Shown here one piece after another: positions 672 to 28,400 of a stretch of 64,000 nucleotides of DNA. The notes beneath the pieces are model-generated. The model worked only from the letters and a program-made list of their open reading frames with translations, had not been told where the DNA came from and did not search any database. The stretch covers positions 10,682-74,681 of the IMG/VR virus record IMGVR_UViG_3300024327_000003. One strand, written 5' to 3'. Origin of the DNA: a virus. Within the stretch, counting starts at the first letter, position 1. Each line of letters starts with the position of its first letter. Made by a program: the position numbers and the translations under genes.

Positions 672-1835
672 GTGTTAGTAAAATTTTCAAATAATGTTGC
701 CACAGCCCTAACTAATAGTATTACAGATTCAGCTACGTCATTTGATTTAGATGACGTATCTGCTTTGCCTACGATTATATCGGGAGAGCATTTTTATCTT
801 TCTATACTTAGCGGGGGCAATGGAGAAATTGTTAAAGTAACTGGTGTAGCTGGTAATACGATTACTTGTGTACGAGGGGTAGATGGTACGTCTGGGACTG
901 CTGGCTTAGCTGCTGATGTAGTTGAGTTACGCATTACAACTGCAATGCTTACGGATGCATTCGATGCCATTAGTGATTTAGCTCCTGCGTTACATTTTCT
1001 TTTTGAAACAACTACTACGGATGCAGACCAGGGTGCCGGATTAGTATCTGGAAATAATGCTACTTTTGCTTCTTCAACAATTTTATATATTACAGATGAA
1101 GACGATAACGGTGTCGATGTTTCTGGACAAACTTCTACTTGGGGAGATTTTGCTGGAGTTGGAACAGCAGTTAGAGGAACTATTGTTATTAGATCAAAAG
1201 AAAATCCAACAACTCGATATGTTGCATTTCATATCAATGGCGCTTTAACAGACGGAACTGGTTACTGGAAATTCCCGGTAGCAAATGTTTATACTGCAGG
1301 CGTTTTGGTTGACGCTGAGCCGGTTACTATTGAATTTATTCAAGCTCCGGCTCAATCTGCATCAGCTACTTTAGCTGGAATTGTTGAATTACTTACCAGT
1401 GCTGAAGCTATTACTGGAACAGATACCACAAGAGCTATGACTGCTGCAGCATTTCGAGCAGCGCTAGTGGACGGTAATGATACTATTTTAGGTAAGTTTA
1501 ATCTTAAAGACTTTGGAATGATTACAGTTGCTAAAGGCAATCTGGGAGCAACTCCTGCTTTTGATTTATCAGCTGGCAATTGTCAAACTGGTACTGTAGA
1601 TGAAGCTATTACATCATCAACTTTTACTAATCCGACTGGCTCAGATGAGCTCTGCTCATTTATTCTTTTCTTAACTAATGGAGGCGCATTTTCTGTGGCA
1701 TGGCCTACAAGTGTTGATTGGGCCGGAGCAAGCGCACCGAGTTTGGTGGCTTCCGGAGTAGATATTTTAGCTTTTCATACTTATGATGGTGGAACTATTT
1801 GGCATGGAATATTGTTATCTGGAGATTCTAGCTAA
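672..1835 (+). CDS. tail fibre protein
   Basis: N-terminal EIVKVT...RGVDGT...VELRITT anchor, ATLAGIVELLT..EA..GTD fibre repeat, C-terminal WPTSVDWAG...DILAF.TYDGG.W domain. Confidence 0.7.
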   Translation: MLVKFSNNVATALTNSITDSATSFDLDDVSALPTIISGEHFYLSILSGGNGEIVKVTGVAGNTITCVRGVDGTSGTAGLAADVVELRITTAMLTDAFDAISDLAPALHFLFETTTTDADQGAGLVSGNNATFASSTILYITDEDDNGVDVSGQTSTWGDFAGVGTAVRGTIVIRSKENPTTRYVAFHINGALTDGTGYWKFPVANVYTAGVLVDAEPVTIEFIQAPAQSASATLAGIVELLTSAEAITGTDTTRAMTAAAFRAALVDGNDTILGKFNLKDFGMITVAKGNLGATPAFDLSAGNCQTGTVDEAITSSTFTNPTGSDELCSFILFLTNGGAFSVAWPTSVDWAGASAPSLVASGVDILAFHTYDGGTIWHGILLSGDSS

Positions 1836-2962
1836 TGTTTATATTTGGTGGTCCTAATTTTCTAATACCACAACCTACTTCAGGCAAATTGTTTGGATGG
1901 GGTAAGAATGCTTTTGGGTGTGTAGGGGATGGTACAACAACAAACCGTTATTCGCCTGTGCAAATCGGCTCCAACACAAATTGGAGTGGAGCTAAAGGCG
2001 GCTATGCCTTTACGTGTGCGATCAACACAGCGGGAAAAGCCTATGCGTGGGGTGAAGGTGCGGATGGTAGATTAGGAACAGGATCAACCACTGACACTTG
2101 TTCACCAAATCAAATTGGTGCGTTGACCGATTGGGTTCCGAAAGGCCCGTTTGCTATTGGTGGCACAAGGTATGGGATGCACTTTATCAAAGCCAATGGA
2201 ACATTGTGGGCGTGGGGAAAAAATAGTTATGGGCAGATAGGTGATGGAACAACAACTGCAAGAAGTTCACCAGTACAGATAGGAGCCTTGACCACTTGGA
2301 GATATGTTTCTGCGGGAGCCAGTGAACACGTTATTGCAATTACCACTAGCGGGACTATGTTTTCGTGGGGAAGCGGCAGTAGTGGAAGAACAGGACATAG
2401 CAATACCACATCTTATTGCTCACCTGTCCAGATAGGAGCCTTAACCACTTGGGCTAGGGTTAGATGTGGTGGTTCTTCTGGCAACTGGGCTGTAAGAACT
2501 GATGGGAAAATGTTTACTTGGGGCACAGGAACAGGGGGACAGTTAGGACTTGGCAACACTACTGCTTACTCATCTCCAAAACAAGTGGGGGCCTTAACTA
2601 CTTGGGCTTCGTCAATAAGCGGTACGCATCATGGCGGTTGTATAAAAAGTGACAACACCCTTTGGTCATGGGGAAGTGGTGGTAGTGGTCGAACGGGTCA
2701 TAACAACACCACGGATTATTCATCTCCGGTACAAGTAACAGCTCCGGCTGTGACATGGCTTTATGCAGATGCAGGACAGTACTCTACTATGGGACAAGAT
2801 GTAGATGGCTATCTTTATATGTGGGGTGATGGCGCACAAGGACAGCAGGGCGATGGTATCGGTTCTTCTGTGTCTTGTCCCAAACAGTTAGGAACAGAGA
2901 AGTGGCTTTCTATGCAATATATTTCAATGGCAAATAAACATAAACATCAAATACGAACATGA
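1835..2962 (+). CDS. RCC1-repeat beta-propeller protein (possible receptor-binding/tail accessory)
   Basis: About seven repeats of L[WF]xWG.n..G.lG.g.T....SPVQIG..T.W. Confidence 0.85.
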   Translation: MFIFGGPNFLIPQPTSGKLFGWGKNAFGCVGDGTTTNRYSPVQIGSNTNWSGAKGGYAFTCAINTAGKAYAWGEGADGRLGTGSTTDTCSPNQIGALTDWVPKGPFAIGGTRYGMHFIKANGTLWAWGKNSYGQIGDGTTTARSSPVQIGALTTWRYVSAGASEHVIAITTSGTMFSWGSGSSGRTGHSNTTSYCSPVQIGALTTWARVRCGGSSGNWAVRTDGKMFTWGTGTGGQLGLGNTTAYSSPKQVGALTTWASSISGTHHGGCIKSDNTLWSWGSGGSGRTGHNNTTDYSSPVQVTAPAVTWLYADAGQYSTMGQDVDGYLYMWGDGAQGQQGDGIGSSVSCPKQLGTEKWLSMQYISMANKHKHQIRT

Positions 2963-4731
2963 TATATTTTCTCTCATCACTACCAAGATCAGGAAGCACT
3001 TTGCTGGCATCATTGCTAGGGCAGAGAGAGGATACGCACGTTTCAAAAACGTCTAACCTGTCTGAAACTCTAGGGGCTGTTTACAACACTATTCAGAATA
3101 GTGGGGCGACAAAAGCAGAAGGCGGCACAGATGAAGATACCTTCCGTGCGCTTGAGGGGATTGTTAAAGCCAAGTATGCCACCACAGAAAAAGAATTTAT
3201 CTTCGACAAAGATAGGATGTGGCCTAACCCTAACATTATGCCAATAATGAGAGAAGTGCAGGGCGGGGGCGCACCTAAAATTGTCGCAACCGTAAGACCT
3301 ATTGTTGAGTGTATCGCATCTTTTTATTTGATTGACAAGTCGGAGCTTTCCCCTAAAGAGTGGGTTAGAACTTCTCATCTATTTAAACATTTAATGGAGT
3401 CATATAAAACTCTACAGGAAGGCTATCAGCTTGCCCCTAAAAACTTTTGTATTGTAGAATATGACAATCTTGTAAATGACCCACAGAAAGAATTAGATCG
3501 TATTGCAGATTTCATTGGGATGCCTCATATTGACTACAAGCCTGAGATTGAGCAAGTAGAAGAAAATGATGAGGTGTGGGGGATAGAGAATCTACACACT
3601 CTGTCACCAGAGATTCATAAAAATCATATAAATGCAAGGGCTGTTCTAGGGCAAGAGCTTTACGATCATTATTCTGGTGGTGAGTTTTGGAATGACAAGC
3701 CAGAGCCAGTTAAACCTCCGCAGGTTCTTGACTTGACCCTAGAGGCTGGCCTTCATGGGCATTTTGAAAAAGCTGAAAGCATGTTACGGCAAGAGATCAA
3801 GGTAAACCCCGGCAACGAAAGAGCGCAATTCAATCTTGGGCTATACGACATGATGAATGGCAACCAAGTCAGAGGCTATAGGCAGTTTGAGTATGGCAGG
3901 ACTATGAATGTCTATGGCAACAACAACACAGCCAAGACTGCTATGCCTAGATGGGACGGTAAGCAACCGGGAACAATCTTGATGGATATGGAAGGCGGTT
4001 ATGGCGATCAGTTTTTCTATATTCGCTTTGCTAAAGACATTGTTGACCGAGGGAATAAATTAATTGTTTCTGGATGTGAGTGGCTTTCTAATATTATGCG
4101 AAGCGTGGAAGGCGTTGACACCTTTTGTATGCACCAAGGGTCAGAGTTTGTTTATCATAACTACTGGCTCCCCTCAATGTCTGCCCCTTTAGTGATGGAC
4201 TTGGAGTATTCTGATATGAGGGGGGAGGCTTATATCCCTAGGGTTTGCCCAAGTGAAGGGAAGATCGGGGTCAAGTGGGCTGGCAACCCAAAGTTTGAAC
4301 ACGAACAACATAGGCTGTTCCCTAAAGAAATGATGTGGGATGTTGTAGAGGGGTTCGATGTTATATCATTCCAACGTAATGATGAGACAGGCGAAACAGA
4401 AGGCCCAGAGTGGATGGAGAAAGCCGACCTCTTTTCATGGGATATAACAATGAAAGAGCTGAGTAAGTGCGACCTGTTGCTTACTTCTTGTACTGGGCTA
4501 GCGCATCTTGCTGGGGCTATGGGGATTGAGACTTGGATTGTCACTCCATTGCTCCCCTATCATACTTGGGCAGTACCGGGGAATAAAAGTCCGCATTATA
4601 ACAGCGTTACTTTATTTCGACAGGAACAGTATGGAAATTGGGATAAGCCATTTTGGAATTTGAAGAAAGCCTTTAGACAGAGAATGTGGAAAACAAAAGA
4701 TATTGAAGATGAACTTTTATTGCATATATAG
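2959..4731 (+). CDS. sulfotransferase / TPR / GT-B (GT9-like) glycosyltransferase fusion
   Basis: SLPRSGSTLL (5'-PSB loop), RPIVECIASF (3'-PB-like), TPR-like helix pair, then EGGYGDQF, IGVKWAGNP, DLLLTSCTGLAHLAGAMG. Confidence 0.75.
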   Translation: MIYFLSSLPRSGSTLLASLLGQREDTHVSKTSNLSETLGAVYNTIQNSGATKAEGGTDEDTFRALEGIVKAKYATTEKEFIFDKDRMWPNPNIMPIMREVQGGGAPKIVATVRPIVECIASFYLIDKSELSPKEWVRTSHLFKHLMESYKTLQEGYQLAPKNFCIVEYDNLVNDPQKELDRIADFIGMPHIDYKPEIEQVEENDEVWGIENLHTLSPEIHKNHINARAVLGQELYDHYSGGEFWNDKPEPVKPPQVLDLTLEAGLHGHFEKAESMLRQEIKVNPGNERAQFNLGLYDMMNGNQVRGYRQFEYGRTMNVYGNNNTAKTAMPRWDGKQPGTILMDMEGGYGDQFFYIRFAKDIVDRGNKLIVSGCEWLSNIMRSVEGVDTFCMHQGSEFVYHNYWLPSMSAPLVMDLEYSDMRGEAYIPRVCPSEGKIGVKWAGNPKFEHEQHRLFPKEMMWDVVEGFDVISFQRNDETGETEGPEWMEKADLFSWDITMKELSKCDLLLTSCTGLAHLAGAMGIETWIVTPLLPYHTWAVPGNKSPHYNSVTLFRQEQYGNWDKPFWNLKKAFRQRMWKTKDIEDELLLHI

Positions 4732-6064: not shown

Positions 6065-6505
6065 ATGCATATACGTGTTGATCGACATTCCTCAAACGAA
6101 GAAGCTACTCTATCTAAAATTTACTTAGATGGTGATTTCTTCTGTTATGGTCTTGAAGATCAGTATCAAGAAGTAAAAGTTCCTGGAGAAACTCGTATAC
6201 CTGCAGGAACATATAATATTATTTTACGTACCGATGGAGGTATGACTAAAAGATATGCCGAACGATATGCTTTTCATCAAGGAATGCTTCATGTTCGATA
6301 TGTACCTGGATTTACTTATGTATATATTCATACTGGAAATACTGATGATCACACAGACGGGTGTCTTCTTGTAGGAGAATTTCAAGACGAAGAGAAATTT
6401 ACTATTAGCTCAAGTAGATTTGCGTATACACGGTTATACCGGGCTGTAATAGACGCCGCAGCTGCCGATGAATTAACTATAACCTACGAGGATAATGATG
6501 AGTAG
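6065..6505 (+). CDS. DUF5675-family protein, probable endolysin (L,D-transpeptidase-like)
   Basis: GLED...IPAGTY...IYIHTGNT..HTDGCLLVG; located in lysis cluster. Confidence 0.7.
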   Translation: MHIRVDRHSSNEEATLSKIYLDGDFFCYGLEDQYQEVKVPGETRIPAGTYNIILRTDGGMTKRYAERYAFHQGMLHVRYVPGFTYVYIHTGNTDDHTDGCLLVGEFQDEEKFTISSSRFAYTRLYRAVIDAAAADELTITYEDNDE

Positions 6506-7004
6506 AACTAATATATTAAGTCCTAATCAAATGCCAGTTATGCGTCCACTGCCTATGGCAGATGGAGCGCCTCATCGCGAATGGGAACTTATGCGTAATT
6601 GGACTTTATGTTGTACCCCGTTAAATATTATATTTTTTATTCCAAGTGGTTTTATTTTTAATGGCGCTAGCGTACCTCGAGTATTCAGTAATATATTCCC
6701 AGCTACTGGTTATTTATTTATTGCTGCATTAATTCATGATTATTTATATGGTAATGCTTGCTATATACAGATAAAAAACGGTCTCAAGAAAAAACAAAAA
6801 GTAGATAAAAAAATCTCTGATAATTATTTTGCAGATATAGCCCAGTGGCTTTATAAAGACCATTGGTTTAAGACAAAGCTTGCTAAAGGGGCTTTAGTAG
6901 TAGGTGGCCAAGGCGCCTGGGATGCTTGTCGAAAGATCGACGGCACTTATGTAAAGCCTAAGAAATATATATATTTTGGAGATAACGAGGAAGACAATCA
7001 ATGA
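6495..7004 (+). CDS. DUF1353-family protein
   Basis: IPSGFIFNGASVPR...AALIHDYLY signature. Confidence 0.75.
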   Translation: MMSRTNILSPNQMPVMRPLPMADGAPHREWELMRNWTLCCTPLNIIFFIPSGFIFNGASVPRVFSNIFPATGYLFIAALIHDYLYGNACYIQIKNGLKKKQKVDKKISDNYFADIAQWLYKDHWFKTKLAKGALVVGGQGAWDACRKIDGTYVKPKKYIYFGDNEEDNQ

Positions 7005-7180
7005 TACGGTACGTATTAATTTTTTTAATAGCTCTCGTACTATCTGGGTGCGCAACTTTTACAGCTGTTGTGTCTGGAGGAATGGCAGCAAAAGAAGCGT
7101 GGGATTACTTTACAGAAGACGATCAAACAATAATTAAAGTTGAAAAACTTGAAATAATAATGCCAAAAGAAAAGGAATAA
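7001..7180 (+). CDS. 59-aa lipoprotein, o-spanin candidate (not in ORF track)
   Basis: MIRYVLIFLIALVLSG-C lipobox; ATGA overlap with the previous gene; GAGG RBS. Confidence 0.6.
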   Translation: MIRYVLIFLIALVLSGCATFTAVVSGGMAAKEAWDYFTEDDQTIIKVEKLEIIMPKEKE

Positions 7181-8480: not shown

Positions 8481-8927
8481 TTATGGTTTAACTTTATGAA
8501 GTTCTGTATCCCCTTTAAGATATGGCGGCACCGGGTCTGGATATTTCTCAAAAAGTTTATTTACAATTTGCTGCATGTCTGCCTTATCAGTTTCTACCAT
8601 TGAAACTGGTGGACGGTCGTCATTACATAAACCCCGCATTTGGGCATCGCGCAGTACTATCAAAGAAGCAATAGCCTTGGTTATGTGGTGGAGGCCACTG
8701 TCAGGGTCGATATCTTGACCTTCCCAGTAATCTAATATATGCCCTATAGTAGCGTCGATATAAATACCGGCTCGAACACCGGCAACTCTATAATTATGCC
8801 GGCCGTACTTCATCGAACCTTCCATCATGCCTACACTTACTTCACGAAGTACGTTACCAGGTACATTTGTATAAAGCCTGGGTTTCTTAACAGCTATTCC
8901 ATCTTTGGGGTTTGTTTCTTTTTTCAT
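8481..8927 (-). CDS. dATP/dGTP diphosphohydrolase-like protein (DUF5664)
   Basis: NPKD...K...GSMKYGRHNYR...Y.DA..GH...YWEGQDIDPDSGLHHITKA signature; GGAGG RBS. Confidence 0.75.
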   Translation of the reverse strand: MKKETNPKDGIAVKKPRLYTNVPGNVLREVSVGMMEGSMKYGRHNYRVAGVRAGIYIDATIGHILDYWEGQDIDPDSGLHHITKAIASLIVLRDAQMRGLCNDDRPPVSMVETDKADMQQIVNKLFEKYPDPVPPYLKGDTELHKVKP

Positions 8928-8955
8928 GTAACCTCCTAGGATTATTATGATACGT

Positions 8956-8990
8956 TTGTATTAGCTAAATTAATTTGTTATATATAAATC
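8956..8990 (+). promoter_or_regulatory. possible sigma70-type late promoter for the ACP-KAS-portal operon
   Basis: TTGTAT-17 nt-TATATA in the AT-rich divergent intergenic region. Confidence 0.35.
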
Positions 8991-9016
8991 AATATTTTAT
9001 TTCATAAGGTATATAA

Positions 9017-9370
9017 ATGAGTGAAACATTTAAAGAAGAAGATTTTAGTACTTCGTCGTTTGATTTTACAGATGAGCAATTCTTATGCATCATCAACCAT
9101 TTATTCAAATTGGATGCCCCTATGGGTGAAGATTTTGTTCCGATTGAGACAATGGATGAAGAAATTACTATCGAAAAATTAGATAGCTTGAGTGCTGTAG
9201 TTTTCTTTATCTGGATCTCTGAACTATTTGGGATCCCTGAAGACATGGTTAATGACTACATGGTGTCCGGAAAAAATACCGGCCGAGATTTAAAAGATTT
9301 TGTGATGAAGAACGCTACTCATACATATACTTATAAAGAAGCCGTAGAGTACAGCAAACGATGCTTTTAA
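9017..9370 (+). CDS. acyl carrier protein-like
   Basis: Acidic 117 aa; KLDSLSAVVFFIWISELFGI matches the ACP DSL phosphopantetheine site (Ser57) and helix II; later T..DL..FV helix. Confidence 0.75.
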   Translation: MSETFKEEDFSTSSFDFTDEQFLCIINHLFKLDAPMGEDFVPIETMDEEITIEKLDSLSAVVFFIWISELFGIPEDMVNDYMVSGKNTGRDLKDFVMKNATHTYTYKEAVEYSKRCF

Positions 9371-10377
9371 CCCACACTAATTCTGTATATTCTGAAAATA
9401 TTTCTTTATTGGATTACGTTACGTATCCCCAATACGTACATGTCGTTAATAACGGTGGAGGACCCCTGGTTAAAAAGGGAATTAAAACAGCGTGCGAAGA
9501 ACTGGTTAACTACGTATTACAAGGTAAACATGGAGCTACTCCAGGAACTTTTGAATTTTTACGCAAGTGCACGGAGTCAGAATTCAATAAAGTAGGCCTT
9601 ATATTGGCTGCCGGGGGTACGCATTGGATGGGGCATTTAACTAGCGTTAAATGGTCAGATCAATATCCTACCTATAAAATACCGGTAATGGCTGAAACGC
9701 AGATCTACGCCGGCTCAATAGCTAATAAGATCGGAGAATTTGAATATATCTCTACCGACGCCACAAGCTGCATCAGTGGACATTCCGCTTGGTACACAGC
9801 CCGTAACCTCATGAAAGTAGGGGCTTTAGATACAGTTGTTATTATCAGCGTGGATGACGGTATTTCAGAAGACTATTTGTCGATATTTGGAGAATTTGGG
9901 TTATCTAAACTAGTCGACGAAGAGAATAACCCAGCTATTACTAAGTTTAGGTGCGGCCAGGCCTGTAATATATCGGTATTTGAGACTGGGTATTCTGCCT
10001 GGAATAACGAACATAAAGTTATTGCCCGGATTGAGGATATGTATATTGGTGCCGAATCGCATAATACGCCTTTAGGTATATCAGCTTCTGGATCCGGATA
10101 CCGTAAAGTGATAGATAGGGTGTATACTGATAAGATTGATTTTGTTAAAACTCACAGTACTTTCTCCGAGGATAACAAAATAGAGGAAATCCTTATTAAA
10201 GAATTATTTGGGGATATTAAGACAGTGAATTATAAACTACGTATCGGTCACACTATGGGGGCATCTACAGCTGTTGAAACTGCATTAGCTATCCAGGAAG
10301 AATCTGGCACGTTTTTAAGTTTAGGCGCCGGCATGGGTAATGTATTTTCATCTGCAGTGGTGAAAATTGAATCATGA
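9361..10377 (+). CDS. beta-ketoacyl-ACP synthase-like (FabB/FabF fold), compact
   Basis: DATSC137ISG, KTH265STFS, KLRIGH297TMGAS and C-terminal SLGAGMGN give an intact Cys-His-His triad. Confidence 0.8.
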   Translation: MLLTHTNSVYSENISLLDYVTYPQYVHVVNNGGGPLVKKGIKTACEELVNYVLQGKHGATPGTFEFLRKCTESEFNKVGLILAAGGTHWMGHLTSVKWSDQYPTYKIPVMAETQIYAGSIANKIGEFEYISTDATSCISGHSAWYTARNLMKVGALDTVVIISVDDGISEDYLSIFGEFGLSKLVDEENNPAITKFRCGQACNISVFETGYSAWNNEHKVIARIEDMYIGAESHNTPLGISASGSGYRKVIDRVYTDKIDFVKTHSTFSEDNKIEEILIKELFGDIKTVNYKLRIGHTMGASTAVETALAIQEESGTFLSLGAGMGNVFSSAVVKIES

Positions 10378-10772
10378 TGTTTTCTCACGTTAATTTAATC
10401 CAAGAAGGCGAATCTGCACTGTTTTATAGGTTTTCCCGGGAATTGCACGGTTACATGATAGCCGGCATATTCATTGCTCCGGATCTAGCTTCTAAAATGA
10501 ATTTTGCTAAGATTTGGAAATACTTCGTATCTTCGGTGGTTCAGGCAGACGATATCTATTGCTCTATTCTTTTAGGAACACAGAACTCAATGTTTAGTAA
10601 TTATTTAGATTATCATGATACAATCAATGGGCTTAAGATATATAAAGTTGATAATTATCTTAAAGAACAATACAGTAGTTATGACATGCAAGCGAAGCGA
10701 GCTAAGAAGAGGCGCGATATAGTACATATGACAAACCCTAAAAAATCCATTAAAGAGAGTATAAATCCATGA
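10374..10772 (+). CDS. hypothetical protein, possible GNAT-like acyltransferase
   Basis: ATGA overlaps with both KAS and portal; beta-beta-beta-alpha-beta pattern judged by eye; function inferred only. Confidence 0.4.
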   Translation: MMFSHVNLIQEGESALFYRFSRELHGYMIAGIFIAPDLASKMNFAKIWKYFVSSVVQADDIYCSILLGTQNSMFSNYLDYHDTINGLKIYKVDNYLKEQYSSYDMQAKRAKKRRDIVHMTNPKKSIKESINP

Positions 10773-12850
10773 GTGACGAAGATGTTGGATTTGAAATAGA
10801 TTTAATAGATACAGATGCGAGTACTCTAGTGGATTGGGAAAATCCACCTAGTCTTGCAGATCTTAAAGCAGATTTGGAATCCGCTCAAACTGCTCATAGT
10901 ATTCATACTCTGGAAGTAGATAATTGGATAAGAGTACTTGAAGGCAAACAAACTATTAACGCTAAGCGAGGTCGATCTAAATTAGTACCTAAGCTAGCGC
11001 GTAAGCAAGCTGAATGGCGTTACGCAGCATTATCAGAACCCTTCTTGTCTACCGACGACGTATTTAACACTTCCCCTGCTACCTTTGAAGATAAAGAGAA
11101 AGCCGAACAAAACGGCATGGTATTGAATTATCAGCTCAATTGCCGTATGGATAAGATTGGCTTTATAGATAATTATATTAGGACTGCAGTAGATGAAGGT
11201 ACTGTAATAGTGCGTGTTGGTTGGGAATTCGAAAAGGGCATACGTACGGTTTACGAAGACGTATTCGAAGATCGATTAATGCAGGACCCTCAAACAGGAC
11301 AACCTGCCTTGGATCCGTCTGGTGCGCCGCTATTAGAAAGGGTTAAAACTGGCCAAACAGAATCAGAACAAGAAATAACTATTAAAAACCAACCTGTATT
11401 AACAGTCTGCGATTATAATAATTTAGTATTAGATCCCACCTGCGAAGGCGACATAGATAAAGCCAGCTTTGCTATTTACAGCTTTGAAACCTCATTATCC
11501 GAACTTAAGAAAGACGGTCGGTATAAGAATTTAGATCAAGTTAATTTCGAGAATGCTTCGGTATTAGCTGAAGCTGATCATAAAGTTAAAACTGACGATA
11601 CTTCGTTTACTTTTAAAGATAAAGCTCGTAGGAAGGTAGTTGCTCGGGAATACTGGGGATTCTGGGATATTGACGATACCGGAGAGGTTAAGCCATTTGT
11701 CGCCACCTGGGTAGGGAAGACTTTTATTCGATTAGAAGAGAACCCCTTTCCGGATAAGAAATTACCCTTTGTATTAGTTCAGTATTTGCCCCGACGTCGA
11801 AATGTCTATGGTGAACCTGATTCAGCTCTTATTGAAGATAACCAGAAGATCGTAGGAGCAGTAACGCGAGGAATCATTGATATCATTGGGCGTAGTGCGA
11901 GTGGGCAACAGGGCATCCGAAAGGATGCGCTGGATGTTACCAATGCAAGGAAATTTGAGCGGGGTGAAGATTTTAAATTTAATGCAAATGTGGATCCTAA
12001 AGTGGCATTTTACATGGAGACATACCCGGAAATTCCTCGTTCTGCCATAGAAGTAATCCAGATGCAGAATAACGATGCAGAGGCTTTAACAGGCGTTAAG
12101 GCCTTCACACAAGGTATTTCTGGCCAGGCCCTGGGAGTTACAGCAACTGGTATTAGATCAGCCTTAGATGCTACTTCCAAGCGGGAATTAGGTATCTTAC
12201 GCCGGCTGTCCAATGGAATGACTCGAATTGGCCGTAAAATCATCTCTATGAATTCAGAATGGTTGGAAGACGAAGAAATCATTCGTATTACCAACGAACA
12301 ATTAGTAGAGATCGATCGTAATGATTTAGGCGGTAAATACGATATTAAGCTTAATATTTCAACAGCTGAAGCAGATGAACAAAAAGCCAGCGAATTAGCA
12401 TTTATGTTACAAACTGTAGGCAATAATATGCCTATTGAAATGACTCAGATGATTTTGTCAGATATTGCTAAATTGCGTAAAATGCCTGAGTTAGCTAAAC
12501 AAGTTCAGGAATACCAGCCTCAACCAGATCCTATAGCCCAGGAAAAAGCTCAATTAGAAGTAGAATTACTACGAGCTCAAATAAGCAATGAGATCGCTAA
12601 AGGACGCGAGAATGAAGTAGATGTGGGTCTCAAGACAGCTAAAACTGCAACTGAAGAAGCTAAAGCACGGCAGATGCATAGCGATTCTGATAACAAAGAT
12701 CTTGATTTTGTTGAGAAAGAATCTGGAGTAGCTAACCTTCGAGATCAGGATGCTGCTGAAACAAAACATGCTCAAGATATGGAAGGTAAAGAGCATGATA
12801 GATTATCTGCTCTTGACAAAGAAGCATTCAGTGCGTTAAATAAAGGATAG
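10769..12850 (+). CDS. portal protein (N4 gp59-like)
   Basis: W.N.P...DLK.DL, GRSKLVPKLARKQAEWRYAALSEPFLS, ALTGVKAF.QGISG, RSALDA.SKRE.GILRRL. Confidence 0.92.
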   Translation: MSDEDVGFEIDLIDTDASTLVDWENPPSLADLKADLESAQTAHSIHTLEVDNWIRVLEGKQTINAKRGRSKLVPKLARKQAEWRYAALSEPFLSTDDVFNTSPATFEDKEKAEQNGMVLNYQLNCRMDKIGFIDNYIRTAVDEGTVIVRVGWEFEKGIRTVYEDVFEDRLMQDPQTGQPALDPSGAPLLERVKTGQTESEQEITIKNQPVLTVCDYNNLVLDPTCEGDIDKASFAIYSFETSLSELKKDGRYKNLDQVNFENASVLAEADHKVKTDDTSFTFKDKARRKVVAREYWGFWDIDDTGEVKPFVATWVGKTFIRLEENPFPDKKLPFVLVQYLPRRRNVYGEPDSALIEDNQKIVGAVTRGIIDIIGRSASGQQGIRKDALDVTNARKFERGEDFKFNANVDPKVAFYMETYPEIPRSAIEVIQMQNNDAEALTGVKAFTQGISGQALGVTATGIRSALDATSKRELGILRRLSNGMTRIGRKIISMNSEWLEDEEIIRITNEQLVEIDRNDLGGKYDIKLNISTAEADEQKASELAFMLQTVGNNMPIEMTQMILSDIAKLRKMPELAKQVQEYQPQPDPIAQEKAQLEVELLRAQISNEIAKGRENEVDVGLKTAKTATEEAKARQMHSDSDNKDLDFVEKESGVANLRDQDAAETKHAQDMEGKEHDRLSALDKEAFSALNKG

Positions 12851-20417: not shown

Positions 20418-22487
20418 ATGGCTAAAGTGATTGATTACCAGAGAGCTCACCAAATAAGAGCGGCTGATAGTTCAGGTATTTTAAATAACATACGCAATAC
20501 CAATAAAGATATTATTGCCAGTCTTGGCGGTATGGTTAATACCGGCGAAGAGGCATTAGAAGATTATGTTACTAACGCTACAGATAAATTCCAAGTACAA
20601 GCCGCTCAGTTAAAAACTGATGAAGCACGGAAAGCTCTGTTAGCTAATAGCGATCAATCGTTTTTAGATCTCGATGATATTAGCAAAGGATTTGTTGATG
20701 CTCAAAATCAAGATTTTAGAGTATCGGCCGAAGGCCGTGCAGTAGCAGCTGAGGGTCGAGCTGTAACAGCAGACGAACGAGATATCCTACAAGACGCAGT
20801 AACTCTCGATACCACTAAAGAAGCATTACGGCACAGCAAAGAAATCAATCCTGTTTCTTTAGATCAAGCAATACAGTCATTAGATGCCAGTAAAAAAGAA
20901 GCAGCACATCTTGAAGCTCTCCGTCCTGGAGCATTAATTAAACAAGGTCAAGAAATTACCAAAAACAGTTTAGATACGTTTGGTCAATTACAAGATATAG
21001 ATTTAGCTGAAAAAATAAATCCACTCAAAGTAGAAGGAGAACAGTACAAAACTAAATCTGCTAAATATCAATCAATCTCAGATAAACGAGGCCTTAAATA
21101 TAAACGAGAAGAGCACGAAGCTCTGAAGCAAGATGCTATAAATAAGCAACGTATCTTTGAACAAGAATCTCAGGCTTTAAGTGATGCAAGAAAGCGAGCT
21201 CAAACTAAAGATGAGCAGGACAAAATTGATAACGCTCAAAAAAATTTAGAGACTAAACGTATAAACGATGAATACGATAATAACGTTGCTTATAAAGCTC
21301 TCAAATTAGCAAACGATCAGGCAAGAGAAGAAAATGTGCGTAAAGATCGAACAGATAAAATAGCTGTTCAAGATAGCATAGCTGCTTTTCAGCCTAGTGG
21401 TAATTTAGATAACGATATTGCCGCATATGATGTCTTAAGACAGGGCGCTATTGACGGAAGAATGTCTGAAGAAAACAAAGCATTACTTAAACCTATCGAA
21501 GATAGATTAGTAGATCGATATTCTACTGATATTGATGCTAGGTTAGAGCGTCTTACTGGCGAATCTACTTCTACACTTAAGGAAAACGCATACACATTTG
21601 ACTTATATAAACAATTGCGCGATGGAATTGTTGGAAATTTAGGACAACCAAGTAAATTTCATTGGATGACTGAATCTCAATTAGAAACAATTGCTGATAA
21701 AGCTATCAATGATAATAATCCTGCGAAAATAAAATTTCGTCGAGTTACTCAAGCACTTGAACTTAAAAATAAATTAGAAGCCAGATCTAGAGAAACAGTT
21801 GCAAAGAAATATGATTTAAACCAAGAAGATATTGAAACACTAAATCGTGATCCTGAAGCCAGTATTTATGATCGTGTACAGACTCGGTTGAAAGATGTTG
21901 ATTGGGATAAAGAAAATATTCGAGCATTGCGAAACAGCATTTCTAATACGTTTATAAAACTACGCAAGGCACTACCTGGATTATCACTTGAAGGACAAGA
22001 ACAATTAAATTTAGGTGTATTAGATTTGTATGCAAAAGCTAATTTTAATCAGGATTATATTCCTTATAATCATAATGATTTTTCATTAGCTGACGATAAA
22101 GAAACAGATATTTCTGATCGAGAAATTCCTGCATTATTTCAAGTTATACAAAGAAGTTTTGGTAAAAAGACAGATTTAGGAGATGCAATTGCTGCAATAG
22201 ATGCTGCAACTGCTGAAGCTAATAAGAAGAAAAGTCAGCTAGAGAAAAGTGCTGAAAAAGTAACTCCGAAGGGATTAACAAAAGAAGAATACAGAGCTAA
22301 AAAGAAAGCTAATTTAAAAAAATATGAACAAAATCTTAAAAATGCATTAAGTCCTGATCCAGAAGCAGTAGCTAAATTAGAAGCAGCAATTGCTGCTCTA
22401 GATCCTAATGATCCTAAGGACGCTATACAATTAAAACGATATAACCGAGTTAATGATGTTAAAAAATTCTTTGGATTTGGGAAATAA
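20418..22487 (+). CDS. internal virion/ejection protein (N4 gp51 position)
   Basis: Directly upstream of vRNAP; Cys-free, helical/coiled-coil; AEGRAV tandem repeats. Confidence 0.6.
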   Translation: MAKVIDYQRAHQIRAADSSGILNNIRNTNKDIIASLGGMVNTGEEALEDYVTNATDKFQVQAAQLKTDEARKALLANSDQSFLDLDDISKGFVDAQNQDFRVSAEGRAVAAEGRAVTADERDILQDAVTLDTTKEALRHSKEINPVSLDQAIQSLDASKKEAAHLEALRPGALIKQGQEITKNSLDTFGQLQDIDLAEKINPLKVEGEQYKTKSAKYQSISDKRGLKYKREEHEALKQDAINKQRIFEQESQALSDARKRAQTKDEQDKIDNAQKNLETKRINDEYDNNVAYKALKLANDQAREENVRKDRTDKIAVQDSIAAFQPSGNLDNDIAAYDVLRQGAIDGRMSEENKALLKPIEDRLVDRYSTDIDARLERLTGESTSTLKENAYTFDLYKQLRDGIVGNLGQPSKFHWMTESQLETIADKAINDNNPAKIKFRRVTQALELKNKLEARSRETVAKKYDLNQEDIETLNRDPEASIYDRVQTRLKDVDWDKENIRALRNSISNTFIKLRKALPGLSLEGQEQLNLGVLDLYAKANFNQDYIPYNHNDFSLADDKETDISDREIPALFQVIQRSFGKKTDLGDAIAAIDAATAEANKKKSQLEKSAEKVTPKGLTKEEYRAKKKANLKKYEQNLKNALSPDPEAVAKLEAAIAALDPNDPKDAIQLKRYNRVNDVKKFFGFGK

Positions 22488-25400
22488 TGAATTTTGATGA
22501 ACGTCTTTTAGCTGTTCGAGATCAAGTATTATCAAAAAAAGCTGAAACAGCTACGCTTGTTGCTGATGCTAAAAATTCCTTTTTACCATCTTCTCAGCTT
22601 GCTGATGCAGATTTGTTCAGACAAACTGCGCAAGATGTCGATACTGATCTATTCAGAGAAGTTACTCCTGGTAGTACAGAGATATTTAAAGAAGTTGGTG
22701 AAGAGGCTACCAGTCTTAAAGCCAATTCCCCAATTGTATCTCAAGAAGGGCCTATATCTTTACATGAAGACGGCACCTATTCAGTAACCACTGCTGAAGG
22801 TGTATTCATTCCCGGGTTAACTGAATTAAATGCCCGAGAATTTGCTGGATATAATCAAGAAAATGCCAGAGCTGTAAAAGCAGGAGCCCCTACAGATTTC
22901 TTAGGTACCAAAGCAAATGCTATTGTTCAGACCACTATCGATCTGGGAGCACAAGCTGCCTCAGCGTTTACTACAGATCCTGAAAATCTTAAAGCAATTA
23001 AAGACTTCTCTGCGAACCTTAAAACTAAAGTTCCAGTTAATCGTAAAGAACAAGTAGCTGCCCATACAGCTTTCACCACGATTGCTAAAAATAGTGGTAA
23101 TTGGGAAGCTACTAAGAATGCTTTATTTAACGATCTAGGTACTCTTATCTCACAGGGCATAGACAGTGTTCCCTACATGGTGGCATTCACCATAGGAGGA
23201 CCTGTAGCCCAGACAGCTATTCTTACCTCTTTAGCTATTGGTAAGGGTAATCAGGCCATTGAAGAATTCACCGAAAAGAACGGTCGCAGGCCTACTGAGA
23301 AAGAAGCTACTCGTATTAAATTATGGTCAGCTGTTGGTACTGTTGCTGAGAAATACGGTGATATGGCAGCTGTTAAAGCTATCCCGGGTCGACTGGCTTG
23401 GATTAAGCAAGTTCAGAAGACTGTCAAAGAAGTCACCCCACCCAGTATTCTTAGCTTAACTGTACTTCGACCAGCAAGAGGACTTGCCGGTGAAGGATTA
23501 TCTGGAGGTATTACCTCTGCTACCGAACAATTAGCTGCTGAAGGTGAGATCACAGATACTGCAGCTATCACATACGATGCTCTGGCAGAAGCTGCTGGTA
23601 CTCCTGGAGGAGTTGCCACTATCGTTGCTGGTCTCACCGGTGTACATGCAAGTATTAAACTAACCGAAAGATTAGCTGATGCTGCTATCAGTCCTTCCAG
23701 TAAAACCAAAATTAAAGAATCAATAGAGAAAGAGATTGCAGGTATTAAGGCAATTTTAGCAGGACAAGAAACTATAAAATTTGGTAATACAGAAGAAGGC
23801 GACAAATACATTAAAAAATTAGCAGAGATAGAAGTAACTCTTGCGGCAGCAAATATTGATATTGATGGAAATTTTGATAAAGAAAAGGCTGATACTGAAA
23901 ACGCAATATTTAATGGAATGTACATGGCATATAAAGAAGCCAATCCATTAAGCAGTAATGAGGAAGCTAATGTTGAAACTAGAAAACAACTTCGAAAAGA
24001 AATTGCTGCATTAGAAGCTCATAAAAAAGAAGTAACAGAAAAACTAGATACTCCTCTTTCTGGTGACGAAACTGTAGATCATATTAAGGAATTAGAAGAT
24101 ACCAAAGTTTTTTTAGAAGGTCTTCTTGAGAAAGGTGACTTTTCTGACAAGACCATAACAAAGGATTTAAAAGACGCTAAAGAAACTATTAAACCTAGTA
24201 AAGAAAATACTGAGATTGAAGATGATGAATTCAACACTATTATCAAAGACGCTAATAAATCTACTACTCAAAAAACTATAGAGAGTTTAACTAAAGTAAG
24301 TAAACGCGTATTGTCTGCTTCTCAAAAAGCAGCATTGGTTATTAGCAATAATAAACTAATTAAAAAATTAACAGATAAAGTTGGAACAGTATTAGATGTT
24401 GTAGATAAAGTAAGTTTCTTTGGCAGCATAGGCCCAACTATTGCTGAAATTCAAACAGCTATTGATACTGCTAAAAATGATCATGATAGGGTACTTCTAC
24501 AAGCTCAATTAGATGCTCTCAAAATAGAAGAGCAGTTAGATACAAAGTCTGTTGATAAAACCATGGCAGAAGTTCATGACGAAGTAGAAGAGGGCACATC
24601 TCAGAGATGGAGAGGCATAAAGAGCTATCAAGACGAGATATTAGATATTATTAATAGCGACATGCATTACCAATTAGCTCAGCAAAAGATTACAGTCCTT
24701 GAGCAACGATTGAAAGTGCATGCAGATAATCTACAAAATAAAGCAGATAAATTTGCTGAAGCACATAAGCTAGCTCTTGCAGATCCCCAAGGACGTTCGA
24801 TCCGTGTAGTTAGTCGGAGTGATAAAAAGGCTCGAGGCGAACGGGCTGTACGTTATGAAATTCCTAAGGGAGATGATAAATACGTTACTGAGAAAAACAA
24901 GAAAGCACCATTTACTACTATTATTCATAAAAAGTCTAATACCTTAATTACTGTAGTTACTAAAGAAGCCTCTTATGGACAGTTAACAACCCAAGTAGTA
25001 AAAGGGCATAAGACTACTTCTTTTCATAAAAATGCTCAGCAACTCAAAAGAGATAAAGCTAATGCTGCTGCACAATTAGCAAAAGCAAAGTCTATAGAAG
25101 GCAATATTAAAACAGTAGCTGACCCTGCTACTCAAAAAGATATAAATAAGTTAAAGAATCCAGAAGGCAAAACCTCTCCCAAAGCTGACCCGGTGGAGGC
25201 GTCGGCGCAGCCAGAGCCGACACAGGGCAGCGATAAAACAACTAAATCTGATGTCTTTCATTCCAATTCACCTGGAGTTAAACGAGCATTTGATATATTT
25301 GACATAGAAAAACTTCAAGAACAAATTAAAAGATTAGAAAAAATATTAGCTAACCCTGAAACAATTAAAGCTAATAGCGAACATACAGCAGCTGAACGTA

Positions 25401-28400
25401 TTGCTCAGGCTAAATTAAATCTTGAAGCAGCAAAAATACAATTAGAGTATTTACAAGAAGGTCAAGAAAAAGGGTTAGCTTCTCCAGAAAGTATACGATT
25501 TATAGTAGTAAAGACAGATCAATTAAAAGCACAATTAGCTAAACTTAAATCAGGTACAAAAGCACACACTGCAAAAGCAGCTGAATTAAAAGAAGCGAAT
25601 GATGCATTAACTGCTTTAATTGATAAAGATGTAGAAACTGAATTAGATCTTAAGGAAGAAGAAAATGCTAAAAAATCAAAAACAGGAACTACGGGACAAG
25701 CTCCAGGATCTGGGAAAGAAACTTCGTCTACTACGGTTCCTCCTAAACGTTCTGGACAAAACAGGAATAATGAACGAGGAAAGCCCCAAGCAGCTCCAAC
25801 CAAAAAGAAAAAGGTTCCATCAGATTCTCCAATTAAAGTAGGAGATAAAGTTCAATGGACTTTACGGGGTGTAGATCAATTTAAAGAACCTACTACTGTA
25901 TTAAAGATTTACCCGCTAACTCCAGACGGTTTTACTTATGTAAAACTTGAAGGAACTAATACGGGTGCACTAATTACAGAATTAACTGTTGTTGATTCTA
26001 CTAAACAGACAATTCCTAAAACATTTGAATTTACTAAAGATGAATCATTTGCTTTAGCAGATCCTGAGAATGGATATTCTCCAGAAGATATTCAACGATT
26101 ACTGGATGATCCTGTATTTGCAGCAGAAGCTTTAGCTGAAGCGAAGCCTACCCCGTTAACTGCCGAAGAACAAGCAGCAGAAGATTTAGAGCGAGAAGAA
26201 AATGATGATTTTGGTATTACTGAAGATTTTGCCGATGGTGGAGATACAGTTAAAATAGTTGCTGCCCTAGAGCGATTACAAGCATCTAGACAAGCTCCTT
26301 CAACCAATAAACTTACTAAAACGCTACTAAAAGGATTTAAAACTACAGACGTAGCTTTACAGTGGTTAATCGATAATGCAGTTAATCCAGAATTTAAAGG
26401 GGTAGCAAAACAACTATTAGGTACAGTTGGTAAACTAGAAGTTAGATTTAGCGAAAAAAGACCTGATAGTGCACTTGGATCTACTATAGTTACTGTAGAT
26501 GGAGTGGAAGTACAAAGAGATATAGAACCTACTGGCACAAGTACGTCTGTTACAGAATTTATTGGTATTGTCATTTATGCTAATGCTTTAGATAATAAAG
26601 TGCTTACTACAGAAGAAGTATTATTACATGAACTTATTCATGTAGCTGTGCGGAATACTTTTACAAACCCCATAACTAAAGCACAAAAAGCAGCTGTTAA
26701 AGAGTTACACAAAATAAATAGTTTATTGCGTGTTGAATTTGATGCTATAGAACATGGTGGTAGAGATCCTGAACGGGCATTTGGCGGAAAATTAACAAAA
26801 AAAGAAATTAATATTTTAGAAAAATTAGTAAATCAAACTCCAGAAGAATTTATTACATATGGATTGACGAATAAACTTTATCAAAATATCCTAAAGAAAC
26901 TTCCTCCCCAGTATGAATATGGTGAAACACCGAAGAATAAGCCTTCATCTTTATGGTCACAGTTTGTTAGTGTCGTACGTATTGTTCTCAATATCCCAGA
27001 ACATCAGCATACTTTATTAACTCAGATACTAGAAGCTAGCTCTGACCTAATACTAATTGCTGATGTAATTATTCCTTCTAATGAAAGTTTTGAAGACGTC
27101 GATCTTGATGCAATATTTGGTGCCGAAGGTAACTTTGGTGATTTCGAAAATGAATTTGCTGGTGAGAGTGCAGAAGAGCAAACACCTAAAGAGTTTTTAG
27201 AGGCAGATGCTAACAGGGAGCAGACTGCGGAAATAGAAGAAATAGATGATCTAGCTCCTTCCGATGTAACCGATCGATTTATACCTATTGAAGAGCTAAG
27301 CAAACAAGCTCTGTATCTGGTATTCCCAGAAGTCATTACCAGAAATGGGAAACTAAAAATAAAAGAGCAGGCTAATTTAACTGGACCGCAGAGAAAACAA
27401 TTTGGATTAATACTAAATCAATTGGCCAGCTTATTTGATCTGGATGTAATTAAGAATAGGAAAAAAGATTTCCCAGCGTTATTAGATGCACTTAAAGATC
27501 TCGGTGATACCAAGAACTTTATTGAAGTAACTAAAGATACATTGCCTATTGTTATTACCGATGAGCAATTAACTGAGAATAAAACTAAAGCCCTCCCGGG
27601 TAGAAAACGTGCAGCTCAAAAGAAGGGCGAAAAAGCTCCAACATTAGAAGAACTAAAAGCAGATAGCGGAGATAGCGCCTTAGGTATTTTAAGTAAGAAG
27701 TTCGCTGAACTAGTTCAGGTGCGTGTAAATAAGAAAGGCAAAGAAGCTACTGGCATATTTGCTCTTCCTGATGTTGTCTTTAAAAGTGACGCAATGCTAC
27801 AAAGAGCCTTAATCACATTAGGCTTAAGTAGACCTGCAGCTGTTCAGATGACCATCGAATATAATAGGTTCGCTAAAAAGTATCAGGACATTAAACTTAC
27901 TGAAACCTTCTCTACCGGAATTCCTGCTGCTAGAAAGCCACTATCTTTACTCCACCGAGGAGAAGAAGGATTACCTCCACAAATCATATTTGCAATGGCT
28001 ATAGGCTCAATGCAGATGATTAGTAGGAATCCTACTAATATAGCGTTTAGAAGTGGCTTTGCTAAATCAGAATTTTTATATAATACATACACTGATTTAA
28101 CCGGAGAAGAGAGTGAGCAACTTGATGAAGTAGGCTCCGGGTATAACAACACGGCAGAATCTACAGGTAAAAGCATTGCTGCTTTACTGAAGATAACTTC
28201 GGTCGATGTAGAGACCTCAGGTTACTTCGATCATTTAGAGATTGCTTTAGGACTAGCAGCTATACAAATAGAGCACGGTCCCAGCACTAAACTTAATAAA
28301 TTAACTTTTGAAGAAAGATCCAAATTACCAGATTCTCGCTATCATGTAGCGTCCCATATCTGGAATTTTAAACAAGTTCCTTATAATGCAGATCGTAAAT

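Follow-up and report, generated by a model that had tools for sequence, protein, structure and literature searches.

Directly in front of the portal gene of an uncultured marine N4-like phage we found three short genes. The set they form is robust and conserved and has not been described so far, and its products are remote members of known superfamilies. They are an acyl carrier protein (ACP)-like protein (ACPl), a minimal ketosynthase (KS) and a small GNAT-like protein, referred to here as mini-GNAT. The genes lie in a stretch of 64,000 nucleotides (nt) of IMG/VR record IMGVR_UViG_3300024327_000003, a viral genome of 74.7 kb that was judged complete. This stretch is referred to as the window and its coordinates are used throughout, except that those prefixed G000 are of the whole 74.7-kb record. 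We tentatively interpret the gene set, with somewhat less than even confidence, as a phage-private acyl-carrier and acyl-transfer module that is expressed with the late (head) genes. Literature searches found no published description of the cassette.

Examination of the locus showed the three open reading frames (ORFs), their coordinates and their overlaps to be exactly as an earlier note on this DNA had claimed (Table 1). The ACPl and KS genes overlap by 10 nt, and the KS/mini-GNAT and mini-GNAT/portal junctions are both ATGA, so that the chain runs straight into the portal gene. The order beyond is N4-like (portal, small protein, acidic scaffold-like protein and major capsid protein), and a gene for a virion RNA polymerase of 4208 amino acids (aa) is located at 22487-35113. 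Homologues of ACPl, KS and mini-GNAT number in the hundreds among metagenomes, including marine ones such as Tara Oceans. Their dN/dS ratios in pairwise comparisons of close relatives were ~0.2 or less, with dS saturated. Together, the low ratios and the many homologues indicated that the three genes are real, and the ratios point to strong purifying selection on all of them. None of the three proteins reached a Pfam gathering score, and the PHROGs entries for all three families read "unknown function".

Table 1. The cassette genes and associated features of the phage genome.
Feature	Coordinates	Strand	Basis or context
ACPl, carrier protein, 117 aa	9017..9370	+	Fold and motif
KS, minimal FabF-like ketosynthase, 338 aa	9361..10377	+	PDB sequence matches
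Mini-GNAT, 132 aa	10374..10772	+	Fold alone
Portal, N4/SU10-type	10769..12850	+	Pfam SU10_portal E 9e-138; PHROG 1216 E 8e-224
AT-rich spacer, 89 bp	8928..9016	+	Between divergent minus-strand gene and ACPl gene; probable transcription-unit start
FabZ, 3-hydroxyacyl-ACP dehydratase	G000:7061-7513		Outside the window, ~3.2 kb before window position 1; between gp69-like gene and large terminase gene

The first protein had been described in the earlier note as ACP-like on account of an LDS57L motif, and our analyses of its model and alignments bore this out, with a carrier fold and a near-invariant serine in the DSL motif. ACPl is acidic (pI 4.3) and has an N-terminal extension. Its Leu55-Asp56-Ser57-Leu58 motif is encoded at 9179-9190, and Ser57 (9185-9187), the candidate site of phosphopantetheine attachment, begins the second long helix (residues 57-71) of the AlphaFold model (pLDDT, the predicted local distance difference test score, 77). 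The best 50 matches to this model in a VIA structure search were all carriers of the ACP, peptidyl carrier protein (PCP) or DltC type, with Z scores up to 7.4 and alignments that spanned whole targets (e.g., 83 of 85 residues). Nearly all Foldseek matches were also ACPs or PCPs, with weak E-values. Asp56 and Leu58 were conserved in 120 of 120 family clusters and Ser57 in 119, and the DSL motif was kept in the ACPl of sister clades and in a 93-aa homologue (hhalign 96.9%) from the unrelated spring-water phage MW202545.

Sequence models gave fainter signals for ACPl. There was no match for the window protein in Pfam or NCBIfam, its hhalign comparison with Escherichia coli AcpP was not significant, and a profile search against PDB sequences returned insignificant matches only (one to a helix of colicin immunity, the other to a peptidyl carrier protein). 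Several family members had PP-binding matches below threshold in the right register (best E 0.009), the best scoring 16.7 bits against the PF00550 cut-off of 20.8, and some members are annotated by JGI as "acyl carrier protein". Helix II of ACPl (DSLSAVVFFIWISELF) is hydrophobic, in contrast to the acidic helix of housekeeping ACPs, which suggests a private, orthogonal carrier. The modelled fold and the motif together support the assignment of ACPl as a carrier protein distinct from the housekeeping ACP. A separate observation concerned its conserved N-terminal helix (9017-9120; F-x-F-T-D-x-E-F-L), which resembles, below threshold, helix I of the immunity proteins of colicins and pyocins; the E-value was 0.04 with Im9 in the PDB and, for several members, 0.02-0.13 with Pfam PF01320. 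This recurring likeness is probably due to chance.

The second protein, KS (PHROG 35856), is ~70 residues shorter than FabF (~410 aa). The earlier note had pointed to intact Cys137, His265 and His297, and these residues (9769-9771, 10153-10155 and 10249-10251), along with Lys292 (10234-10236), proved to be invariant in all 120 family clusters and in register with FabF. Phmmer searches of the PDB identified the ketosynthase 6kxd (E 1.8e-6) and Thermus FabF 1j3n (E 4e-5), with the Cys, first-His and Lys/second-His motifs aligned. The hhalign alignment with E. coli FabF (E 4.6e-5, residues 113-312) placed the four catalytic residues opposite the active-site motifs. Scores against family models were all below their cut-offs: 12.3 bits versus 20.8 for Pfam PF02801, 36 bits or less versus 325-629 for NCBIfam models, and 32 versus 494 for the fabF equivalog model. 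The distant KS homologue of MW202545 passes both Pfam models (PF00109 and PF02801), and this ties the phage KS family to the superfamily. Judged by its sequence, KS is not a FabF orthologue and is apparently a catalytically competent, very divergent and minimal enzyme of the ketoacyl-ACP synthase (KAS) I/II type. It is the only KS-like gene in the complete genome, in which no chain-length factor or second KS-like subunit was found.

The third protein is 132 aa in the source phage and usually ~114 aa in its relatives, with a core formed by residues 1-95 and a C-terminal helix, to which the source phage adds a basic tail of 18 aa. In the AlphaFold model (pLDDT 79.6), three antiparallel strands are followed by a long helix, another three strands and helices at the C-terminus, and the GNAT core (beta2-4, alpha3, beta5 and beta6-7) is present. 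As residues 1-95 match only the C-terminal two thirds of GNATs, the arm beta1-alpha1-alpha2 is missing. In an exhaustive VIA search the best 50 matches were all GNATs (Z 6.1-7.8), the top one being the phage anti-CRISPR acetyltransferase AcrVA5 (6iuf). Foldseek matches in the PDB were also GNATs, with probabilities up to 0.99 and E-values of 0.018 or worse, and the ESM Atlas model likewise matched GNAT clusters. The description of this protein in the earlier note as possibly GNAT-like was thus upheld by the Foldseek check that the note had proposed and, as all Z scores were below 8, at the level of the fold only.

The Q/RxxGxG/A loop that binds the pyrophosphate of coenzyme A (CoA) is not present in mini-GNAT. 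The corresponding loop of the family reads A-P-D/N-x-x-x-K, with no Gly motif, and a conserved Lys/Arg (Lys41) is situated at the start of helix 3 in place of the CoA loop motif. Phe51 and Lys91 were invariant in a family-wide alignment of 15 sequences, and Tyr62 is nearly invariant. A profile search of 1.84 billion protein representatives identified 23 small phage clusters, all of proteins of 123 aa or shorter and with no fused forms, while the profile search against PDB sequences returned insignificant matches only (GAPDH). By these searches, the mini-GNAT family is tiny and phage-restricted.

Two other identities for mini-GNAT were considered and dropped. Fold matches in BFVD were to many small phage GNAT-like proteins, one of them named "internal virion protein A", and only one match carried the T7 gp13 family name. 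A kinship with T7 gp13 (PF11090) was not supported by hhalign (probability 0.3%), and no family member matched PF11090. The similar size of AcpS-like phosphopantetheinyl transferases (PPTases) made these a candidate too; PF01648 gave nothing and there was no PPTase among the structural matches.

Analysis of the whole genome indicated that the system extends beyond the three genes. The phage FabZ matches the Pfam FabA-like family PF07977 (E 2e-26) and passes the NCBIfam equivalog model NF000582 (144 bits, cut-off 113), and by sequence it is a genuine, normal FabZ. Its position is the same in relatives with KS, and the two genes were found together in the genomes G000, G001, G003 and G005. Both were absent from a 55-kb contig of a clade that has no KS, and on this contig nothing separates the gp69-like gene from the large terminase gene. 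This co-variation of KS and FabZ suggests a system larger than the trio. A 62-aa Cys-containing ORF (L070:7510-7698; in L070, FabZ has the same coordinates as in G000) is directly 3' of FabZ.

The earlier note had reported no PPTase, reductase or dehydratase. For the first two this held across the genome, and for the dehydratase it held in the window only, as FabZ is encoded upstream of it. Searches of the phage genome found no PPTase, short-chain reductase, canonical PP-binding protein, adenylating enzyme or malonyl transferase, and a working pathway would thus have to borrow host enzymes. ACPl and KS are much more diverged from cellular proteins than is FabZ (for KS, 36 bits versus cut-offs >400), which argues for a long-standing specialised phage system and not a freshly captured metabolic gene.

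The gene-neighbourhood survey suggested in the earlier note linked the cassette to morphogenesis genes in more than 80 contigs from several clades. In 67 of the 67 IMG/VR loci found with KS, the order was ACPl-KS-mini-GNAT-portal-p112-scaffold-capsid as far as the contig reached; these loci belong to one lineage (portal 68-81% identical) and are therefore not independent evidence. A second clade (L075-L081; portal 62-65%, KS 46-49%) has the same ACPl-KS-mini-GNAT trio. In a sister clade of nine contigs (L082-L090) there is no KS, and overlapping ACPl and mini-GNAT genes lead into the portal gene; neither KS nor FabZ was found on the 40-kb and 55-kb contigs of this clade. A fourth group (L074 and L095-L097) has an unrelated protein of at least 414 aa, followed by a homologue of mini-GNAT (123 aa; PHROG 28689, E 1e-6) and the portal. 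Mini-GNAT followed by portal was the sole arrangement common to every locus examined. As this pair is constant and KS and FabZ come and go together, we consider mini-GNAT, usually with ACPl, to be the core of the system and KS with FabZ an add-on. The acyl-transfer system that the earlier note had proposed is partly supported, in the identities of its parts and in their linkage, and needs amendment in two respects: the system is larger than the trio, and KS is dispensable in the sister clade.

The position of ACPl at the head of the operon was also found to differ between clades. In the source phage, the AT-rich spacer and the divergent gene upstream (8481-8927) indicate that ACPl opens the portal/head transcription unit, as had been claimed. 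In the KS-less clade, however, the ACPl gene overlaps an upstream peptidase-like (probable endolysin) gene, which itself follows lysis-type small ORFs. We infer a promoter role for the spacer, in the region of which there was one weak sigma-70-like match (8921-8948), such matches being no commoner there than in shuffled sequence.

An ACPl/KS pair of the same PHROGs also occurs in MW202545, an unrelated phage, as part of the structural module; on one side of it is a virion structural protein and on the other a series of large unknown proteins that ends in an internal-virion-type transglycosylase. The region 3' of the pair (L001:9055-15378) encodes proteins of 146, 639, 412 and 490 aa of unknown family and then the transglycosylase-type internal virion protein, and it resembles an ejection-protein module. 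No homology to mini-GNAT or T7 gp13 was detected in the 146-aa protein 3' of KS. Other FabZ/KS tblastn matches in the phage collection were not used because they look like bacterial DNA; they were mainly unannotated fragments named as Listeria, Enterococcus or Staphylococcus phage or "Bacteriophage sp.", with a few labelled bacterial or fabZ. A short, low-coverage contig (L098; ERZ651768 NODE-40894, 2.1 kb), in which ORFs of cellular housekeeping type by eye are joined to a 5'-truncated mini-GNAT homologue (1836-2111), is most likely an assembly chimera.

Based on these observations, we propose a module that would work as follows. Ser57 of ACPl would be converted to the holo form by a host PPTase, and host enzymes would then load the carrier with a malonyl or acyl group. 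Through its Cys-His-His-Lys site, KS would lengthen the chain on ACPl by decarboxylative condensation, and the product may be processed by host FabG and phage FabZ, possibly also by host FabI. Mini-GNAT would then move the acyl group to an amine acceptor, which could be a small molecule or, in a protein, a lysine or the N-terminus, with acyl-ACPl as the presumed donor and this as the presumed direction. The KS and FabZ add-on would tailor the acyl chain around the mini-GNAT core, usually with ACPl, and the module would presumably act late. As judged from sequences and models, this chemistry is plausible. Two features of the distribution count in its favor: ACPl and mini-GNAT are adjacent and overlapping even where KS is missing (nine contigs), and MW202545, though unrelated, has the ACPl/KS pair in its structural module.

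A precedent for the proposed transfer step is provided by the RTX toxin-activating acyltransferases (RtxC/HlyC), which are GNAT-like, have no CoA-binding elements, take their acyl group from acyl-ACP and acylate protein lysines (PMC8339906). Their activity shows how mini-GNAT could use a carrier-bound acyl group although its CoA loop is missing, and the combination of a carrier and a GNAT has in HlyC, CyaC and ApxIC a mechanistic precedent for protein acylation. The phage protein differs from these enzymes in that no sequence relation was found, its core is only ~95 aa and there is no conserved His like His23 of HlyC. In addition, the toxin acyltransferases use the host housekeeping ACP and not a private carrier. 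A virion or ejection protein is a possible acceptor. A much more specific proposal is that the cassette is a system for the fatty acylation of proteins, which would be the first one encoded by a phage. In it, a chain carried by ACPl and tailored by KS and FabZ would be used by mini-GNAT to lipidate a protein that, in marine N4-like phages, belongs to the virion, is associated with the portal or is ejected. We regard this proposal as improbable.

Several of our findings weigh against the acyl-transfer module. The GNAT likeness of mini-GNAT is supported at fold level only, with no sequence link to the GNAT family: there was no match to any GNAT Pfam family, and no conserved residue in the alignments could be assigned as catalytic with confidence. 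Loading of ACPl by host AcpS and FabD is an assumption, because the phage encodes no PPTase and helix II of the carrier is hydrophobic. In the fourth group there is no ACPl directly 5' of mini-GNAT (these contigs are short and do not cover the rest of the genome), and mini-GNAT may therefore not need ACPl. Cultured N4-like phages assemble their virions with no such cassette. Consistent with the statement in the earlier note that N4 lacks these genes, none of the 477 cultured N4-like records that share the portal (54% identity or less) has them. In the two cultured N4-like phages that were inspected, lysis genes are directly 5' of the portal gene, and the site may thus be permissive for insertion and its occupation no sign of functional coupling.

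Three other explanations were considered. One is that ACPl, KS and FabZ are ordinary auxiliary metabolic genes (AMGs) that supplement host type II fatty acid synthesis (FAS) to maintain the lipid supply in infected cells, with mini-GNAT an unrelated neighbor. Viral fabF, fabG, fabZ and ACP genes have been reported from marine viromes and from an Alteromonas N4-like phage and have been treated only as putative AMGs (PMC10653327, PMC11705849, PMC10654107), and the mean number of lipid-metabolism AMGs in a marine N4-like virus is 0.23 (PMC10654107). The phage FabZ is a normal one, and the missing steps fall to host enzymes in any case. With the bacterial FAS components AcpP, FabF and FabZ the phage proteins share a free-standing carrier with a DSL serine, a KAS I/II-type Cys-His-His-Lys site and a FabZ above the equivalog cut-off. 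They differ in that KS (338 versus ~410 aa) is far below the family cut-offs and that ACPl, a protein of 117 aa, is extended at its N-terminus and not significantly similar to AcpP; in addition, the phage encodes no FabD, FabG, FabI, FabH or AcpS. The extreme divergence of ACPl and KS from their cellular counterparts argues against ordinary AMGs, as does the lack in ACPl of an acidic helix II of the kind docked by FAS enzymes. The cassette is also in the late structural operon, while replication and metabolism genes are on the other strand. Moreover, ACPl is still found together with mini-GNAT in phages from which both KS and FabZ are missing. We therefore consider this explanation unlikely.

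GNAT, ACP and KS are also the domain set of the GNAT-type loading modules of polyketide synthases (PKSs) such as CurA and SxtA. Mini-GNAT could accordingly be a malonyl-carrier decarboxylase, with acetyl-ACPl and malonyl-ACPl condensed by KS to a short beta-keto or unsaturated product. In CurA, SxtA and SbzI-SbzG a GNAT-fold enzyme acts on a carrier-bound group and a ketosynthase follows; the SxtA decarboxylase didomain (7uci, Z 6.4) was among the structural matches of mini-GNAT, and the SbzI-SbzG complex (8zt4) also appeared in the structure searches. Further, the top match of KS among solved structures is a type II PKS-like ketosynthase, Iga11 of the ishigamide pathway (6kxd), with the active-site motifs aligned, although the similarity is low and limited to KS residues 103-306. 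In the known systems, however, these are parts of large synthases or belong to extensive gene clusters, and the His/Thr pair of decarboxylating GNATs is not conserved in mini-GNAT, where His5 varies across the family. The phage has no chain-length-factor partner, and the ACPl-mini-GNAT pair occurs in phages with no KS, which together make a polyketide-type initiation very doubtful. It is also conceivable, if rather unlikely, that mini-GNAT acts independently of ACPl, either as an acetyl-CoA-dependent acetyltransferase like AcrVA5 or as a non-catalytic, GNAT-shaped assembly protein (possibly analogous to T7 gp13), next to which ACPl, KS and FabZ were inserted for unrelated reasons. The invariant mini-GNAT-portal order, the clade with an unrelated protein in place of ACPl, the lack of an assignable catalytic residue and the BFVD matches (among them the "internal virion protein A") are all in keeping with this. 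So is the likeness to AcrVA5 (Z 7.8, 85 of 95 residues aligned), which likewise comes from a phage, is comparable in size and is missing most of the N-terminal arm. AcrVA5 is, however, an acetyl-CoA-using anti-CRISPR with 7% identity to mini-GNAT, whereas mini-GNAT is the product of a late-operon gene that is fixed before the portal and usually accompanied by a carrier protein gene. The missing CoA pyrophosphate-binding motif and the lack of a detectable sequence relation to T7 gp13 also speak against an independent factor, as does the presence of ACPl directly before mini-GNAT, or before the intervening KS, in two of the three architectures across wide divergence.

Some neighboring genes were of interest in their own right. 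The divergent gene just 5' of the cassette encodes the N-terminal domain of a dATP/dGTP diphosphohydrolase (PF18909, E 4.5e-19) and is kept at 68-84% identity in many relatives. Further upstream, a small ORF (7001-7180) begins with a lipobox-like signal (LSGC), just 3' of DUF5675 (6065-6505) and DUF1353 (6495-7004) genes, and may encode a spanin-type lipoprotein. If so, lysis genes would be located just 5' of the cassette, an arrangement also seen in the sister clade that has no KS. Products of the tail-fibre region (1835-4731) are a protein with RCC1 repeats (1835-2962) and one of 590 aa that has a sulfotransferase domain at its N-terminus (2959-4731); the latter could represent a second modification activity of the late region.

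It is routine to classify viral fab and ACP genes as generic AMGs. In these phages, ACPl and KS appear instead to be ancient, phage-specific and minimal, and they are fixed in the head operon. The phages that carry them are marine, N4-like and uncultured and form an abundant group, and mini-GNAT was found nowhere else. If the cassette is an acyl-transfer system, it would represent post-translational or small-molecule chemistry of a kind that is new for phage-encoded systems, and it would offer enzymology three very small orthogonal parts: a KS of 338 aa, a private carrier and a GNAT core of 95 aa. The natural variants, with KS and FabZ, without them, or with mini-GNAT alone, provide a ready comparative design for finding the acceptor. 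Should the acceptor be a virion or ejection protein, its lipidation could, for example, help the giant virion RNA polymerase or channel proteins of these phages to cross the host envelope.

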